Below the pieces are notes generated by a model, which had not been told where the DNA came from, searched no databases, and worked only from the letters and a program-made list of their open reading frames with translations. This document shows, in pieces, positions 406-5,115 of a stretch of DNA of 5,569 nucleotides (its first letter is position 1; each line of letters starts with the position of its first letter). The stretch is from a virus (Duplodnaviria > Heunggongvirae > Uroviricota > Caudoviricetes), in the IMG/VR virus record IMGVR_UViG_2671180360_000003, one strand, 5' to 3'. Position numbers and translations under genes: made by a program.

Positions 406-569
406 GAGGTTGCCCCGTATTCAGTGTCGCTGATTTGTATTGTCTGAAGTTGTTTTTACGTTAAGTTGATGCAGATCAATTAATACGATACCTGCGTCAT
501 AATTAATTATTTGACGTGGTTTGATGGCGTAGATGCACGTTGTGACATGTAGATGATAATTATTATCAT

Positions 570-604
570 TTTGCGGGTCCTTTCCGGCGATCCGACAGGT
601 TACG
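570..604 (+). other. Right-arm terminus of the phage genome including a cosQ-equivalent region
   Basis: The sequence gcgggtcctttccggcgatccgacaggttacg immediately 5' of the cohesive-end sequence matches, from memory, the last ~30 bp of the lambda right end where cosQ lies. Exact cosQ boundaries cannot be set from sequence alone. Confidence 0.4.
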
Positions 605-622
605 GGGCGGCGACCTCGCGGG
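599..622 (+). other. cosN, terminase nicking site (12-nt cohesive end GGGCGGCGACCT at 605-616)
   Basis: Positions 601-646 read tacg|gggcggcgacct|cgcgggttttcgctatttatgaaaattttccgg, which matches the lambda right-end/left-end junction as I remember it (right end ...CGACAGGTTACG, left end GGGCGGCGACCTCGCGGGTTTTCGCTATTTATGAAAATTTTCCGG). Sits about 183 bp upstream of the small terminase start once one repeat copy is discounted, as in lambda. Confidence 0.85.
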
Positions 623-649
623 TTTTCGCTATTTATGAAAATTTTCCGG

Positions 650-756
650 GATCCATGTCCGGTTTCTCTGCAAGTTAACTATATGAAAAATATAAAAACA
701 GGCTGTCCGTGAACCGGACATGTGCAAAAAACGGACATGTAAACCGGACATGACCG
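650..756 (+). promoter_or_regulatory. cosB-like terminase small-subunit binding region: one inverted and three direct copies of an AACCGGACATG-like motif flanking an AT-rich probable bend/IHF site
   Basis: Motif copies: inverted catgtccgg at about 655-663; direct ccggacatg at 714-722, cggacatg at 732-739, ccggacatg at 744-752 (the last within the near-palindrome aaccggacatgaccggtt). AT-rich A-tract segment at 671-700 lies between the inverted and direct copies. Layout resembles lambda cosB (R3, I1, R2, R1), but the motif is not the lambda R sequence. Confidence 0.5.
671..700. promoter_or_regulatory. AT-rich putative bend / IHF-type site (I1-like) within cosB
   Basis: caagttaactatatgaaaaatataaaaaca is strongly AT-rich with A-tracts and sits between oppositely oriented motif copies. 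No clean WATCAANNNNTTR match found by eye, so this is by position only. Confidence 0.25.
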
Positions 757-983
757 GTTTTGTTGTGATTGTGAGGTGAGAGTTTTTGCGAGGTGAGGAG
801 TGGCTACGCAGACTGAAGTTGCCAGGCATTTAAGTCTGACCGATCGCCAGACATGAACAAAAAACAGACATGTAAACCGGACATGACCGGTTTTGTTGTG
901 ATTGTGAGGTGAGAGTTTTTGCGAGGTGAGGAGTGGCTACGCAGACTGAAGTTGCCAGGCATTTAAGTCTGACCGATCGCCAG
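717..983 (+). repeat. Tandem direct duplication, two copies of a ~133-bp unit (about 717-850 and 850-983)
   Basis: Read directly: 738-850 is identical to 871-983 (offset 133). The first ~21 bp of each unit differ at three positions (gacatgtgcaaaaaacggaca versus gacatgaacaaaaaacagaca). The unit contains motif copies, the SD-like gaggtgaggag and the first 17 codons of the small terminase gene. Confidence 0.9.
800..856 (+). pseudogene. Duplicated 5' fragment of the terminase small subunit gene (GTG start plus 17 codons, then TGA)
   Basis: In repeat copy 1 the same RBS and GTG as the real gene open a frame reading VATQTEVARHLSLTDRQT then stop (tga at 854-856), because the duplication junction follows the codon for Q17. 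Product of the duplication; expression unknown. Confidence 0.45.
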
Positions 984-1442
984 CTTCGCAGATTGCAGAA
1001 ATTGCCGGGTGCCCCGATATCGAATAAGCGAGGGCAACTGGATCTGGATGCCTGGCGCGATTTTTACATATCGTATCTGAGGAGAAGTAAAAACGATGTG
1101 CCTGATGGCGATAGCGAAGACGACTATGAGGAGAAATTGCTTATTGCCAGATGGGAACTGACAGCAGAACAGGCTGTTACACAGCAGTTAAAAAATGAGG
1201 TGTCAAAAGGAAAACTTATTGACACCGGGTTCTGTATTTTTGCCCTCAGTAAGCTGGCAATGGCGTTATCCAGTACGCTTGATTCCATCCCTTTATCCAT
1301 GCAGCGACAGTTTCCTGATTTAACACCGCGCCATCTTGACCATCTGAAAACCCTTATTGCGAAGGGGGCAAATCAGTGTGCGCGGGCAGGGGATAAATTA
1401 CCGGATTTACTCGATGAATATATCAGAGCAACAACTGAATAA
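933..1442 (+). CDS. Terminase small subunit (lambda gpNu1 family) with a divergent N-terminal winged-HTH DNA-binding domain
   Basis: ORF in track (169 aa). The C-terminal half (TGFCIFALSKLAMALSSTLDSIPLSMQRQFPDLTPRHLDHLK...LPDLLDEYI) aligns with lambda Nu1 as I recall it (ETAFCTFVLSRIAGEIASILDGLPLSVQRRFPELENRHVDFLK...IPGLLSEYI). The N-terminal ~50 aa differ from lambda but keep an HTH-like pattern. Start is GTG at 933; an in-frame TGA at 927-929 excludes an upstream start. The 3' end overlaps the large subunit start, as in lambda. SD spacing is short, so the start is less certain than the gene. Confidence 0.85.
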   Translation: MATQTEVARHLSLTDRQLRRLQKLPGAPISNKRGQLDLDAWRDFYISYLRRSKNDVPDGDSEDDYEEKLLIARWELTAEQAVTQQLKNEVSKGKLIDTGFCIFALSKLAMALSSTLDSIPLSMQRQFPDLTPRHLDHLKTLIAKGANQCARAGDKLPDLLDEYIRATTE

Positions 1443-3342
1443 TATGATGGCTGCCGTTTCGGTTGCGCTGCAGCCTCTGGTCAGGGTTGTACCAATGACG
1501 GCAGTTGAATGGGCTGATCAAAATTATTATCTGCCTAAAGAATCTTCATATGGTGAGGGAGAATGGAAAACGCTGCCATTCCAGATCGCCATTATGAACT
1601 GTATGGGTAACGACCAGGTTCGCACGGTTAACCTGATTAAATCTGCCCGTGTTGGCTATACAAAGATGTTGCTGGGGGTGGTCGGGTATTTTATTGAGCA
1701 TAAATCCCGAAACAGTCTGCTTTTTCAGCCCACGGATTCTGCCGCTGAAGATTTTATGAAGTCTCACGTGGAGGCGACGATTCGGAACGTGCCATGCCTG
1801 AAAGACCTTTCCCCATGGCTGGGTCGTAAACATCGTGACAATACTCTCACGCTGAAACGCTTTTCATCGGGCGTCGGTTTCTGGTGCCTGGGCGGCGCTG
1901 CCGCCAAAAACTACCGTGAAAAATCCGTGGACGTGGTCTGCTATGACGAACTTTCCTCGTTCGAGCCGGATGTCGAAAAAGAGGGCTCGCCAACCCTGCT
2001 GGGGGATAAGCGTATTGAGGGGTCGGTGTGGCCAAAATCCATTCGCGGCTCGACGCCTAAAATCAAAGGCACCTGCCAGATCGAAAAAGCCGCTAACGAG
2101 TCGGCGCATTTTATGCGTTTTTATGTGCCCTGCCCGCACTGTGGGGAGGAGCAGTATCTGAAATTTGGCGATGAGTCCACGCCTTTTGGGCTTAAATGGG
2201 AGAAGGACAGCCCTGAAAGTGTTTTCTACCTCTGTGAACATCATGGCTGCGTGATCCATCAGTCTGAGCTTGACCAGAGCAACGGGCGGTGGATCTGTGA
2301 AAACACGGGCATGTGGACCCGTGACGGCCTGATGTTTTTCAGCGCCCGGGGTGATGAAATTCCGCCGCCGCGCTCCATCATGTTCCATATCTGGACGGCG
2401 TACAGTCCGTTCACCACCTGGGTACAGATTGTCTATGACTGGCTGGATGCACTGAAAGATCCCAACGGCCTGAAAACCTTTGTGAACACCACGCTGGGCG
2501 AGACCTGGGAAGAGGCCGTGGGCGAAAAACTCGATCACCAGGTACTGATGGATAAGGTGGTGCGTTACACGGCGGCGGTGCCTGCCCGGGTGGTTTATCT
2601 GACGGCGGGCATTGACTCGCAGCGAAACCGTTTTGAGATGTATGTCTGGGGATGGGCTCCGGGAGAGGAAGCCTTTCTGGTGGATAAAATCATCATTATG
2701 GGGCGTCCTGATGAGGAAGAGACGCTGTTACGTGTGGATGCGGCGATCAACAAAAAATACCGCCATGCGGATGGCACCGAAATGACTATTTCCCGTGTCT
2801 GCTGGGACACCGGGGGGATCGATGGTGAAATTGTTTATCAGAGATCAAAAAAACACGGTGTTTTCCGGGTGCTGCCGGTAAAAGGCGCATCTGTCTATGG
2901 CAAGCCGGTGATCACCATGCCAAAAACCCGCAATCAGCGGGGCGTGTATCTGTGTGAAGTGGGAACGGATACCGCAAAAGAAATTCTCTATGCCCGTATG
3001 AAAGCCGATCCCACGCCTGCGGATGAAGCCACGTCGTATGCCATCCGTTTTCCTGATGATCCGGAGATTTTTTCGCAGACAGAGGCGCAGCAACTGGTGG
3101 CGGAAGAGCTGGTGGAGAAGTGGGAAAAAGGAAAGATGCGTCTGCTGTGGGATAACAAAAAGCGGCGTAACGAAGCGCTGGACTGCCTGGTGTATGCCTA
3201 CGCGGCATTACGTGTGTCCGTGCAACGCTGGCAGCTTGATCTGGCTGTACTGGCAAAATCCCGGGAAGAAGAGACGACCCGGCCAACCCTGAAAGAACTG
3301 GCAGCGAAGCTGTCCGGAGGAGTGAATGGTTACAGTCGCTGA
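1414..3342 (+). CDS. Terminase large subunit (lambda gpA family; ATPase plus endonuclease)
   Basis: Long ORF in track. From ATG 1414 the product begins MNISEQQLNN (lambda gpA begins MNISNSQVN) and is 642 aa against 641 for lambda. Near-identical blocks remembered from lambda gpA include AVEWADxNYYLPKES, KSARVGYxKMLLGV (Walker A region), GFWCLGGxAAKNYREKSVDV, GDKRIEGSVWPKSIRGSTPK, CPHCGEEQYLKFGD, HIWTAYSPFTTWVQIV, TFVNTTLGETWE, KGASVYGKPV and WDxKKRRNEALDC. The track start at 1357 would add 19 aa with no homology, so 1414 is preferred. Confidence 0.95.
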   Translation: MNISEQQLNNMMAAVSVALQPLVRVVPMTAVEWADQNYYLPKESSYGEGEWKTLPFQIAIMNCMGNDQVRTVNLIKSARVGYTKMLLGVVGYFIEHKSRNSLLFQPTDSAAEDFMKSHVEATIRNVPCLKDLSPWLGRKHRDNTLTLKRFSSGVGFWCLGGAAAKNYREKSVDVVCYDELSSFEPDVEKEGSPTLLGDKRIEGSVWPKSIRGSTPKIKGTCQIEKAANESAHFMRFYVPCPHCGEEQYLKFGDESTPFGLKWEKDSPESVFYLCEHHGCVIHQSELDQSNGRWICENTGMWTRDGLMFFSARGDEIPPPRSIMFHIWTAYSPFTTWVQIVYDWLDALKDPNGLKTFVNTTLGETWEEAVGEKLDHQVLMDKVVRYTAAVPARVVYLTAGIDSQRNRFEMYVWGWAPGEEAFLVDKIIIMGRPDEEETLLRVDAAINKKYRHADGTEMTISRVCWDTGGIDGEIVYQRSKKHGVFRVLPVKGASVYGKPVITMPKTRNQRGVYLCEVGTDTAKEILYARMKADPTPADEATSYAIRFPDDPEIFSQTEAQQLVAEELVEKWEKGKMRLLWDNKKRRNEALDCLVYAYAALRVSVQRWQLDLAVLAKSREEETTRPTLKELAAKLSGGVNGYSR

Positions 3343-3532
3343 ACTGCAGGCGCTGCGTCAGGCGCGCCTTGATTTATTAACCGGTAAACGGGTGGTGTCT
3401 GTCCAGAAAGATGGTCGCAGAATTGAATATACGGCGGCTTCTCTGGATGAGCTTAACCGGGCGATCAATGATGCGGAGTCGGTACTGGGGACAACCCGAC
3501 GTCGCCGTCGTCCGCTGGGAGTGAGGTTATGA
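3326..3532 (+). CDS. Head-tail joining / head completion protein (lambda gpW family)
   Basis: 68-aa ORF, same length as lambda gpW. LTGKRVVSVQKDGRRIEYTAASL resembles lambda gpW [23 protein letters not shown] as I recall it. SD ggagga at 3314-3319 precedes ATG 3326. Overlaps the end of the large terminase gene by 17 nt and the portal start by ATGA. Confidence 0.9.
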   Translation: MVTVAELQALRQARLDLLTGKRVVSVQKDGRRIEYTAASLDELNRAINDAESVLGTTRRRRRPLGVRL

Positions 3533-5115
3533 AACGAACGCCTGTCCTGATTGATGTGAACGGCGTTCCGCTTCGTGAGAGTCTCAGCTACAACGGGGGC
3601 GGCGCAGGATTTGGCGGGCAAATGGCGGAGTGGTTGCCACCGGCGCAGAGTGTCGATGCGGCCCTGCTGCCCGCGTTGCGTCTGGGGAATGCCCGGGCAG
3701 ATGATCTGGTGCGCAATAACGGAATAGCGGCTAATGCGGTGGCCCTGCATAAGGATCACATTGTCGGGCATATGTTTCTGATCAGCTACCGTCCGAACTG
3801 GCGCTGGCTGGGGATGCGGGAGACCGCAGCAAAAAGCTTTGTCGATGAGGTGGAGGCGGCCTGGTCGGAATACGCAGAAGGGATGTCTGGCGAGATCGAC
3901 GTGGAAGGAAAACGCACATTTACGGAGTTTATCCGTGAAGGTGTTGGCGTTCATGCGTTTAACGGCGAAATCTTTGTGCAGCCGGTCTGGGATACGGAAA
4001 CCACGCAGTTATTCCGTACGCGTTTTAAAGCCGTGAGTCCGAAACGGGTGGACACGCCAGGACACGGTATGGGGAACCGTTTTCTGCGGGCCGGGGTGGA
4101 GGTCGATCGATATGGCCGTGCCGTTGCGTACCATATCTGTGAGGATGATTTTCCTCGCTCCGGGAGTGGACGATGGGAACGGATCCCGCGTGAACTTCCC
4201 ACCGGGCGTCCGGCCATGCTGCATATTTTCGAGCCGGTGGAGGACGGGCAGACCCGTGGGGCTAATCAGTTTTACAGCGTCATGGAACGGCTGAAGATGC
4301 TGGATTCCCTGCAGGCAACACAGCTTCAGTCGGCCATTGTGAAAGCCATGTATGCAGCGACGATTGAAAGTGAACTTGATACCGAAAAGGCCTTTGAATA
4401 TATCGCCGGCGCGCCACAGGAGCAGAAGGATAATCCGCTTATTAATATTCTGGAGAAGTTCTCCAGCTGGTATGACACGAATAACGTGACACTGGGCGGT
4501 GTCAAAATTCCGCACCTTTTCCCTGGTGATGATCTGAAACTACAGACTGCGCAGGATTCAGACAATGGATTTTCTGCGCTTGAACAGGCGCTGCTGCGGT
4601 ATATCGCCGCCGGTCTTGGCGTTTCCTACGAACAGTTGTCCCGTGATTACTCGAAGGTCAGTTATTCAAGTGCCAGGGCCTCTGCCAATGAGTCGTGGCG
4701 CTATTTTATGGGGCGGCGAAAATTTATTGCGGCCCGGCTGGCCACGCAGATGTTTTCCTGCTGGCTGGAAGAGGCACTTCTTCGGGGGATTATCCGTCCG
4801 CCACGGGCGCGTTTTGATTTTTATCAGGCGCGATCAGCCTGGTCACGGGCAGAGTGGATTGGTGCCGGAAGAATGGCCATTGACGGGCTCAAGGAGGTTC
4901 AGGAATCGGTGATGCGCATTGAGGCCGGACTGAGCACGTATGAGAAAGAGCTGGCGCTGATGGGCGAGGATTATCAGGACATTTTCCGCCAGCAGGTCAG
5001 GGAATCTGCACAAAAAGCCGGACTCTCACGTCCGGTGTGGATAGCGCAGGCGTATGAGCAGCAGATAGCGGAGAGTCGCAGGCCGGAAGAGGAGACAACA
5101 CCACGTGAGACGTAA
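3529..5115 (+). CDS. Portal protein (lambda gpB family)
   Basis: 528-aa ORF (lambda gpB is 533 aa). Correct position after gpW in the conserved lambdoid order Nu1-A-W-B-C, with an ATGA overlap to the gpW stop. The N-terminus MKRTPVLIDVNGVPL... fits my recollection of lambda gpB. Confidence 0.93.
   Translation: MKRTPVLIDVNGVPLRESLSYNGGGAGFGGQMAEWLPPAQSVDAALLPALRLGNARADDLVRNNGIAANAVALHKDHIVGHMFLISYRPNWRWLGMRETAAKSFVDEVEAAWSEYAEGMSGEIDVEGKRTFTEFIREGVGVHAFNGEIFVQPVWDTETTQLFRTRFKAVSPKRVDTPGHGMGNRFLRAGVEVDRYGRAVAYHICEDDFPRSGSGRWERIPRELPTGRPAMLHIFEPVEDGQTRGANQFYSVMERLKMLDSLQATQLQSAIVKAMYAATIESELDTEKAFEYIAGAPQEQKDNPLINILEKFSSWYDTNNVTLGGVKIPHLFPGDDLKLQTAQDSDNGFSALEQALLRYIAAGLGVSYEQLSRDYSKVSYSSARASANESWRYFMGRRKFIAARLATQMFSCWLEEALLRGIIRPPRARFDFYQARSAWSRAEWIGAGRMAIDGLKEVQESVMRIEAGLSTYEKELALMGEDYQDIFRQQVRESAQKAGLSRPVWIAQAYEQQIAESRRPEEETTPRET

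Follow-up and report, generated by a model that had tools for sequence, protein, structure and literature searches.

The question raised by contig CYDK01000072.1 (5,569 bp, draft assembly GCA_001285005.1), which in its full length is the stretch of DNA analyzed here and is hereafter called the window, is how a cos site whose cutting site is that of phage lambda can be followed by repeats and by a small terminase subunit that do not look like those of lambda. The contig encodes the late-region junction of a lambdoid prophage, with the genes for the small (TerS) and large (TerL) terminase subunits lying downstream of cos. An original prediction, made from the letters of the sequence, had seen here a modular swap of packaging specificity in which the nicking site was kept and a repeated motif was the cognate recognition element. 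Our analysis makes it very likely that the region is the cos site of a lambdoid prophage joined to a packaging-specificity cassette, in which a cosN identical to that of lambda is followed by a co-adapted cosB, TerS, and TerL N-terminus, the whole being set in a head region like that of phage 21.

For the cosN region, identities were counted in an alignment of the window to the circularized lambda junction, and position 605 was taken as bp 1 of the virion left end in all bp coordinates. The elements on which the argument rests are the following.

575-604, + strand: left flank of cosN with the cosQ region (GGGTCCTTTCC...), 29/30 positions identical to the lambda right end
605-616, + strand: cosN cohesive-end sequence GGGCGGCGACCT, 12/12 identical to lambda and to phage 21
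617-649, + strand: spacer between cosN and cosB (I2 in the nomenclature of Feiss), 33/33 identical to lambda
654-665 (bp 50-61), + strand: R3-like element CATGTCCGGTTT, at the position of the annotated R3 of phage 21 (bp 50-65)
676-688, - strand: IHF-like site (integration host factor; I1 equivalent) TTTCATATAGTTA, two mismatches to WATCAANNNNTTR
711-722 (bp 107-118), - strand: R2-like element, inverted, reading GAACCGGACATG on the + strand; R2 of phage 21 is annotated at bp 107-122, in opposite orientation
728-739, - strand: degenerate copy of the motif, AAAACGGACATG
741-760, strand undefined: R1-like composite palindrome AAACCGGACATGACCGGTTT

The identity to lambda that had been claimed for cosN and about 30 bp on either side was thus borne out, and its downstream end is abrupt: over 650-684 only 7/35 positions agree with lambda, which places a sharp break at 649/650. 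Many lambda-like phages are 93-100% identical over window positions 540-649 and then diverge at the same point, and a GGGTCCTT-type box upstream of cosN-like sites recurs in many distant loci. With its 12-nucleotide (nt) cohesive-end sequence and a conserved cosQ upstream of cosN, the locus reads as a lambda-like cos site.

Beyond the break, the window harbors 11 occurrences of CCGGACATG with at most one mismatch, compared to 1.6 expected and with none of 200 shuffles reaching 11, and eight of the 11 fall within 654-890. The claim that such motifs stand downstream in place of the lambda R sites therefore holds with respect to their enrichment, but the motif is better described as a variant within the R family of lambda and 21. 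The cores read CATGTCCG here (with CATGTCCGG as the core), CGTTTCCG in lambda, and CATGTCGG in phage 21, which points to one shared frame and not to an unrelated motif, and the core sits 3 bp nearer to cosN than in either of the two phages. This cosB shares the architecture of its lambda and 21 counterparts but has an R element of its own, CATG-TCCGGTT.

The constraint on these elements was scored on 25 distinct cosB alleles from 76 E. coli loci of IMG/VR. The TerS relatives in that collection were taken from the best 80 of 368 loci, all of them 96-98% identical E. coli prophages, and are informative for allele conservation and for the absence of the duplication described below, not for co-variation. 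Across the 25 alleles, R3 (654-665) is invariant while bases nearby vary, R2 (711-722) is nearly invariant, and CATGACCGGTTT (749-760), in the same orientation as R3, is invariant except in two single alleles; within the R1-like palindrome, AAACCGG becomes AAGCCGG in about one third of the loci. The copy at 728-739, on the other hand, varies strongly from one E. coli allele to the next, and in phage PhiR12_1 it is destroyed, so it is probably non-functional. Because R3, R2, and CATGACCGGTTT are invariant or nearly so and the 728-739 copy is variable, the conserved set of cosB elements would be that of lambda and 21, with R3, an inverted R2, and an R1. This differs from the one inverted and three direct copies originally proposed, the middle direct copy being the variable one that PhiR12_1 has lost. 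The helical phasing proposed for the copies stood for the distances from R3 to R2 (54 bp) and from R2 to the copy at 742 (30 bp), but not for the steps of 17 and 13 bp. Between R3 and R2, the TAACT of the IHF-like site falls on the annotated I1 when aligned to phage 21 and to lambda.

The proteins that would read and cut this site are encoded immediately downstream.

933-1442, + strand: TerS (small terminase), 169 amino acids (aa), GTG start
933-1097, + strand: predicted N-terminal winged-helix domain of TerS, residues ~1-55
975-998: predicted TerS recognition helix, residues 15-22, with Arg20 at 990-992
1414-3342, + strand: TerL (large terminase), 642 aa
1414 to ~1590, + strand: part of TerL (first 30-60 residues) assigned to the putative exchanged cassette

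TerS is homologous to Nu1, and its gene lies between cos and an overlapping gene for a gpA-type TerL. The Pfam profile Phage_Nu1 (PF07471) matches it with 67.9 bits against a cut-off of 30, but covers residues 49-150 only. In the same sense, tblastn could not align the N-terminus to the small terminases of lambda, 21, N15, phi80, or Gifsy-1: the alignments begin at residue 59-73, and the aligned part is 34-47% identical to these proteins. The divergence of the N-terminus from lambda Nu1 asserted in the original prediction is therefore real. A more sensitive comparison of profiles with hhalign, in which 24 members of the clade were set against the TerS proteins of the same five phages, gave 99.5% probability over residues 5-167, aligned residues 5-34 to the helix-turn-helix of lambda, and matched Arg20 to N21 of lambda and R21 of phage 21, inside the recognition helix. 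An AlphaFold model built from database homologues (mean predicted local distance difference test score, pLDDT, of 71) places helices at 4-10, 15-22, and 38-55 in a helix-turn-helix layout. On account of the profile-profile match and the helices of the model, we take the N-terminal domain to be probably a Nu1-type winged helix that has diverged strongly, and not a foreign domain.

TerS's C-terminal half had been described as conserved. It is homologous, but its identity to lambda or to 21 is 25-60% per 20-residue bin, and the N-terminus of its partner TerL has diverged as well. TerL carries GpA_ATPase and GpA_nuclease domains and, compared to phage 21 in bins of 30 residues, is 30% identical over residues 1-30, 67% over 31-60, and 90% over 61-90, the later bins reaching 97-100% except for two at 77% and 83%; similarity to phage 21 at the nucleotide level begins at window position 1488. 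Given this pattern in TerL and the diverged C-terminal half of TerS, the exchanged unit appears to extend over window 650 to ~1590, taking in cosB, the entire TerS gene, and the TerL N-terminus. The mosaic boundaries are 649/650 on the left and TerL residues ~30-60 on the right, so that the cassette is placed between a lambda-identical cosN and 21-like head genes. In lambda and 21 the C-terminus of TerS binds the N-terminus of TerL (PMC9026076), which would explain why the parts travel together. A modular swap of specificity that spares the nicking site is thus supported, as a cassette exchange of the kind that distinguishes lambda from 21, although the unit is larger than the N-terminal domain.

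Co-variation between the TerS helix and the motif was analyzed in loci from a scan with the N-terminal domain, which, with one genome per bacterial species, yielded 26 loci (Enterobacter, E. whittamii, Aeromonas, Pseudomonas, Microbulbifer, Azospirillum, Roseomonas, and others), and to which 3 phages were added; 11 enterobacterial intermediates with TerS 57-81% identical, from Klebsiella, E. coli, Salmonella, Citrobacter, E. kobei, and metagenomes, were also examined. TCCGGTT is found within 230 bp upstream of this type of TerS in 35/41 loci of Gamma- and Alphaproteobacteria, from Enterobacteriaceae to Azospirillum, the background being 20 hits in ~84 kb. The six loci without the exact heptamer are all divergent members, and in L030-L033, four of the six, the recognition helix clearly differs. 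Wherever the helix has the form [ST][DE]R..[RN]..L, a forward-oriented TCCGGTT lies no more than 150 bp upstream of TerS (22/22 loci), usually as TTCCGGTTCCGGTT at -13 to -30 from TerS, and where a cosN-like site is visible the element stands at the R3 position, as at bp 52-68 in Aeromonas phiARM81ld.

The distant loci L007-L029 (Pseudomonas, Aeromonas, Azospirillum, E. whittamii, Enterobacter mori) show a "simple" cosB 20-60 bp upstream of TerS, with a tandem TTCCGGTTCCGGTT or TTCCGCTTCCGGTT just before the TerS start and ~50-65 bp past a cosN-like GGGTAATTCGAGCCCCG or GGGTCGGTAGACGCGC. The Pararoseomonas locus L030 combines the helix TQQAVSAL with the repeat GGTTGCGGGTTGCGG, present three times at ~1290-1470, and the Acidiphilium locus L033 combines the helix GQSAVAKL with GGGAATT(T/C)CC-type repeats at ~1400-1480; these two may be further specificities of the same family.

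The enterobacterial intermediates carry the full arrangement in 11/11 cases: cosN, the spacer, R3, an A/T-rich stretch, and an inverted AACCGGA, the TCCGGTT core of R3 lying at bp 54-61 in all enterobacterial relatives. The spacing between the R3 and R2 cores is exactly 54 bp in 12/12 enterobacterial loci, even though the intervening DNA is unrelated. Residue 20 of TerS tracks the base 5' of the heptamer: in the five proteins with Arg20 (window, Salmonella, Citrobacter, E. kobei, and one metagenome) the sites read ATG/TCCGGTT in 12/12 cases, whereas in the 30 proteins with D, N, E, S, or T at this residue they read T/TCCGGTT in 47/47 cases. The matching R position is T in lambda (N21) and G in phage 21 (R21), the same direction as the pairing of Arg20 with G. 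Sippy et al. 2015 reportedly placed the discriminating contacts at residues 20 and 24. Genetics has assigned those contacts to the same two residues (PMC9026076). We infer that Arg20 may contact the G directly. The co-variation of domain and motif that had been suggested as a check thus came out positive, in the presence of the heptamer and in the flanking base alike, and these comparisons support the motif as the probable cognate recognition element of this TerS.

The observed sequence anatomy, mosaic boundaries, homology, constraint, and protein-site co-variation are consistent with a mechanism in which the small subunit would bring the terminase to the lambda-identical cosN, where the enzyme would cut. 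As in the homologous systems of lambda and 21 (PMC9026076, PMC4669245), a TerS dimer would bind across a bend to R3, 50-61 bp from the end, and to the inverted R2, 54 bp beyond it and past the A/T-rich IHF-like bend site. Bound TerS would then anchor TerL, holding it through the co-inherited pair of C-terminus and N-terminus, and cosN would be nicked 12 bp apart, with R1 as an accessory element. The assembly would have arisen when cosB, TerS, and the TerL N-terminus (650 to ~1590) replaced their counterpart in a phage-21-like head-gene region. We infer by analogy that TerS actually binds these elements and that IHF would be used or even required, and the resulting packaging specificity is presumed to be distinct from those of lambda, 21, and N15.

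Alternatively, the repeats might not be terminase sites but serve in regulation or termination, in the interval that separates cos from the first late head gene; a hairpin formed by AAACCGGACATGACCGGTTT with a T-rich tract would be an example. A consensus scan indeed flags terminator-like sequences at 741-760, 874-893, 704-720, and 646-662 (four found compared to 0.7 expected), and the R1-like palindrome, in both of its copies at 741-760 and 874-893, consists of a 7-bp stem followed by a T-rich tail. However, the predicted RNA fold is ordinary (z = -0.79, with 40/200 shuffles folding as well), for which the palindromes were rejected as terminators, and this reading would explain neither why R3 and R2 keep their sequence, their distance from cosN, and their mutual spacing across unrelated DNA nor why the motif tracks the TerS helix; we regard it as very improbable. 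An alternative closer to our own keeps the whole anatomy and denies that the specificity is truly separate, so that the terminase would cross-package with lambda or 21 in at least one direction. The core CATGTCCG is indeed intermediate between CGTTTCCG of lambda and CATGTCGG of phage 21, and N15 terminase offers a precedent, as it packages lambda DNA with ~50% efficiency (PMC4669245). On the other hand, the helix RQLRRLQK differs at most positions from RTIQNWQE of lambda and RTIERWQS of 21, the 3' half of the site (GGTTT) is unlike both, and the core is displaced 3 bp towards cosN relative to both; cross-packaging of this kind is, in our judgment, unlikely. That the R cores are only 1-2 bases apart, so that cross-recognition is conceivable, nevertheless has to be set against a cassette with its own specificity, and so do several other observations. 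A scan with the IHF consensus returned 34 matches compared to 39 expected, so the match at 676-688 does not rise above chance. Which element is R1, and in which orientation, is ambiguous, since in E. kobei a third site occurs at an R1-like offset and in relatives including E. kobei and Klebsiella the third site has the orientation of R2, whereas CATGACCGGTTT has that of R3. In Foldseek searches against the PDB, MerR-type winged helices and entry 6hn7 (RppC-TerS) came highest, none of them with significance (best E 0.66), and a PDB profile search with the TerS family gave spurious helical-bundle matches only, with none for the N-terminus. Finally, the five Arg20 proteins may form one clade, in which case their co-variation may reflect a single evolutionary event.

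The window also contains a tandem duplication, of which the original prediction made no mention.

717-983, + strand: 133-bp tandem duplication, 2.0 copies, 97% identical (Tandem Repeats Finder, TRF, and repeat finding)
~717-849 and ~850-982: copies 1 and 2 of the duplication, junction CGCCAG/ACATGAAC
800-856, + strand: truncated duplicate of the TerS start (MATQTEVARHLSLTDRQT*), read from the sequence as a product of the duplication
874-893, strand undefined: R1-like palindrome for the second time, as a result of the duplication

A portion of cosB is duplicated together with the ribosome-binding site and TerS codons 1-17, which adds copies of the motif at 847-855 and 877-885. Whichever its origin, one complete cosB and one complete TerS are retained. 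The best E. coli matches cover 773 nt and not 906 nt, and every close relative is without the duplication. In 5,426 complete E. coli genomes, the junction gave no match to a 37-nt query and split matches alone to an 81-nt query; a 30-nt exact pattern had no match in IMG/VR, and among the 76 IMG/VR loci that carry this TerS there is none in which the TerS start occurs twice. The copies differ at three clustered positions (723, 724, and 733 compared to 856, 857, and 866): copy 1 carries the allele of prophage lineage L001, and copy 2 the commonest allele of lineage L005/L006, with 567 records matching at ≥99% identity. The two lineages co-occur in a single genome, that of strain 2011C-4251. Because the copies carry alleles of two prophage lineages, the contig reads as prophage X as far as TerS codon 17 and, from cosB bp 114 on, as prophage Y.

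Such a join could have been made by the assembler or by the cell. As the window is a whole 5.6-kb draft contig from a multi-copy prophage region, we consider it probable that the duplication is a scaffolding or gap-closure mis-join of two co-resident prophage alleles and forms no part of the mechanism. Three singleton versions of TerS in the databases (P0001, P0003, and P0005, all on short contigs) show small internal duplications or insertions of their own, e.g. SSTLDSIPLSSTLDSIPLS, which points to frequent assembly noise in this prophage gene of multiple copies. If the duplication were instead real, illegitimate exchange between co-resident prophages would have created a second, remote R1 and a decoy leader of 18 TerS codons upstream of the intact TerS. 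The junction is novel, and a pure k-mer graph cannot invent it without supporting reads; copy 1 keeps cosN, R3, R2, and R1 while copy 2 keeps the ribosome-binding site and the full TerS, and N15 has a remote accessory R site ~200 bp from R3 (PMC4669245). Yet the absence of the junction from the genomes, from IMG/VR, and from the related loci, the draft origin of the contig, the distribution of the two alleles between prophages that share single genomes, and the odd singletons all tell against a biological event, which we hold to be somewhat unlikely. The case is a caution that join artefacts are possible in short draft contigs of multi-copy prophage regions.

The remaining features of the contig are those of a lambdoid late region.

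211-405, - strand: YlcI/YnfO (DUF3950) gene
3326-3532: gpW
3529-5115: portal

The contig also carries the start of the head protease. The YlcI/YnfO gene stands just 5' of cos, and related prophages show the same layout beside Nu1-like genes. The identity of the window as a phage-inducible chromosomal island (PICI) was considered and rejected because TerS, TerL, gpW, and portal are all encoded. Its closest relatives are found among E. coli prophages, those of Shiga-toxin-producing strains included, and the deposited phages PhiR12_1 to PhiR12_5 are also near; the records of the latter, which are complete phage genomes, have the cassette without the 133-bp duplication. The stretch from cos to TerS matches at ≥99% identity, and most of it is present in 1,141/5,426 complete E. 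coli genomes; one genome can have up to 4 copies of the cassette, and many of the carriers are Shiga-toxin-producing strains. A few smaller differences separate the window from these relatives. At ~5011 in the portal gene it lacks 6 nt (two in-frame codons) that are found in three E. coli relatives (L001, L005, and L006), and its exact portal protein occurs in one contig alone in the public collection. L001, from strain 2011C-4251 and the closest relative in a complete genome, is without 14 nt of window 2346-2359, and its annotation gives TerL as a pseudogene with a frameshift, whereas that of the window is intact.

Read as a lambdoid cos site with a co-adapted cassette, the locus adds to a system whose architecture and mechanism are known from lambda and 21; what is new is a predicted cognate pair of site and domain that is very common in E. 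coli prophages. Searches of the full-text literature for the motif and for cosB in prophages or O157, in a library that does not extend to most subscription journals, returned no description of this class of cosB and TerS. There is about an even chance that it constitutes a fourth specificity of the lambda family after lambda, 21, and N15, present in up to four co-resident prophages per genome and in about one fifth of complete E. coli genomes, and obeying a rule by which Arg20 reads G, and Asn or Asp20 reads T, 5' of TCCGGTT, giving two sub-specificities. Given its abundance in E. coli, the cassette could decide which terminase packages which co-resident or defective prophages, and possibly which cos-bearing islands. 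The co-variation of protein and site offers a hypothesis for how Nu1-type winged helices read DNA, one residue for one base. The cassette thus bears on the co-packaging of co-resident prophages, and it holds no surprise of principle.

The framework for comparison is that published for lambda, 21, and N15 (PMC4669245, PMC9026076), in which the Feiss laboratory has documented three specificities and found only modest diversity so far (PMC4669245). With lambda, the window shares cosQ, cosN, the I2 spacer, and an architecture of tripartite R sites, R1 being a candidate, and a putative IHF site. The R sequence of lambda, CGTTTCC(G/T)TTCT, is different, and the core here lies 3 bp nearer to cosN; gpNu1 has no N-terminal similarity by tblastn, and the loop of the wing is shorter here. 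Neither the CGTTTCC core nor the helix RTIQNWQE, which mark lambda specificity, is found in the window. The PICIs with Rpp (EcCICFT073 and relatives) resemble it in that they keep a lambda-like cosQ and cosN while cosB is replaced, so that packaging is redirected by a different winged-helix protein. Here, by contrast, a complete prophage has its own TerS, TerL, and portal, contains no Rpp-like gene, and keeps equivalents of R2 and R1.

Phage 21 shares the identical cosN, the order R3-I1-R2(inverted)-R1, with I1 and R1 as candidates here, and the CATGTC of the R core, and there too the specificity cassette takes in the N-terminus of TerL. Its annotated elements lie at 50-65 (R3), 74-86 (I1), 107-122 (R2, inverted), and 150-166 (R1), compared to bp 50-61 for R3 and 107-118 for R2 here. 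TerL is 97-100% identical to that of 21 beyond residue 60 in most bins, but only 30% over residues 1-30, and the first 60 residues of TerS are only 14-22% identical per 20-residue bin. The R core of 21 is CATGTCGGNCCT and that of the window CATGTCCGGTTT, the recognition helices are RTIERWQS and RQLRRLQK, and the TerS proteins have 182 and 169 aa, respectively; the CATGTCGG core and the RTIERWQS helix of phage 21 specificity are thus not those of this locus. N15 and Monarch resemble it in a different way, as the present TerS lineage is found with both "simple" and "complex" cosB. They differ in R sequence and recognition helix, and the TerS gene of the window shows no remote rR2; the window has an inverted R2 and R1-like elements, unlike the simple cosB of the N15 type, with a single R3 and no IHF site, R2, or R1. 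Within the lineage itself, Aeromonas phiARM81ld, E. coli 705R4, and the Pseudomonas and Azospirillum relatives carry a single site at the R3 position, TTCCGGTTCCGGTT, directly before TerS, whereas the enterobacterial members carry R3 together with the inverted R2.

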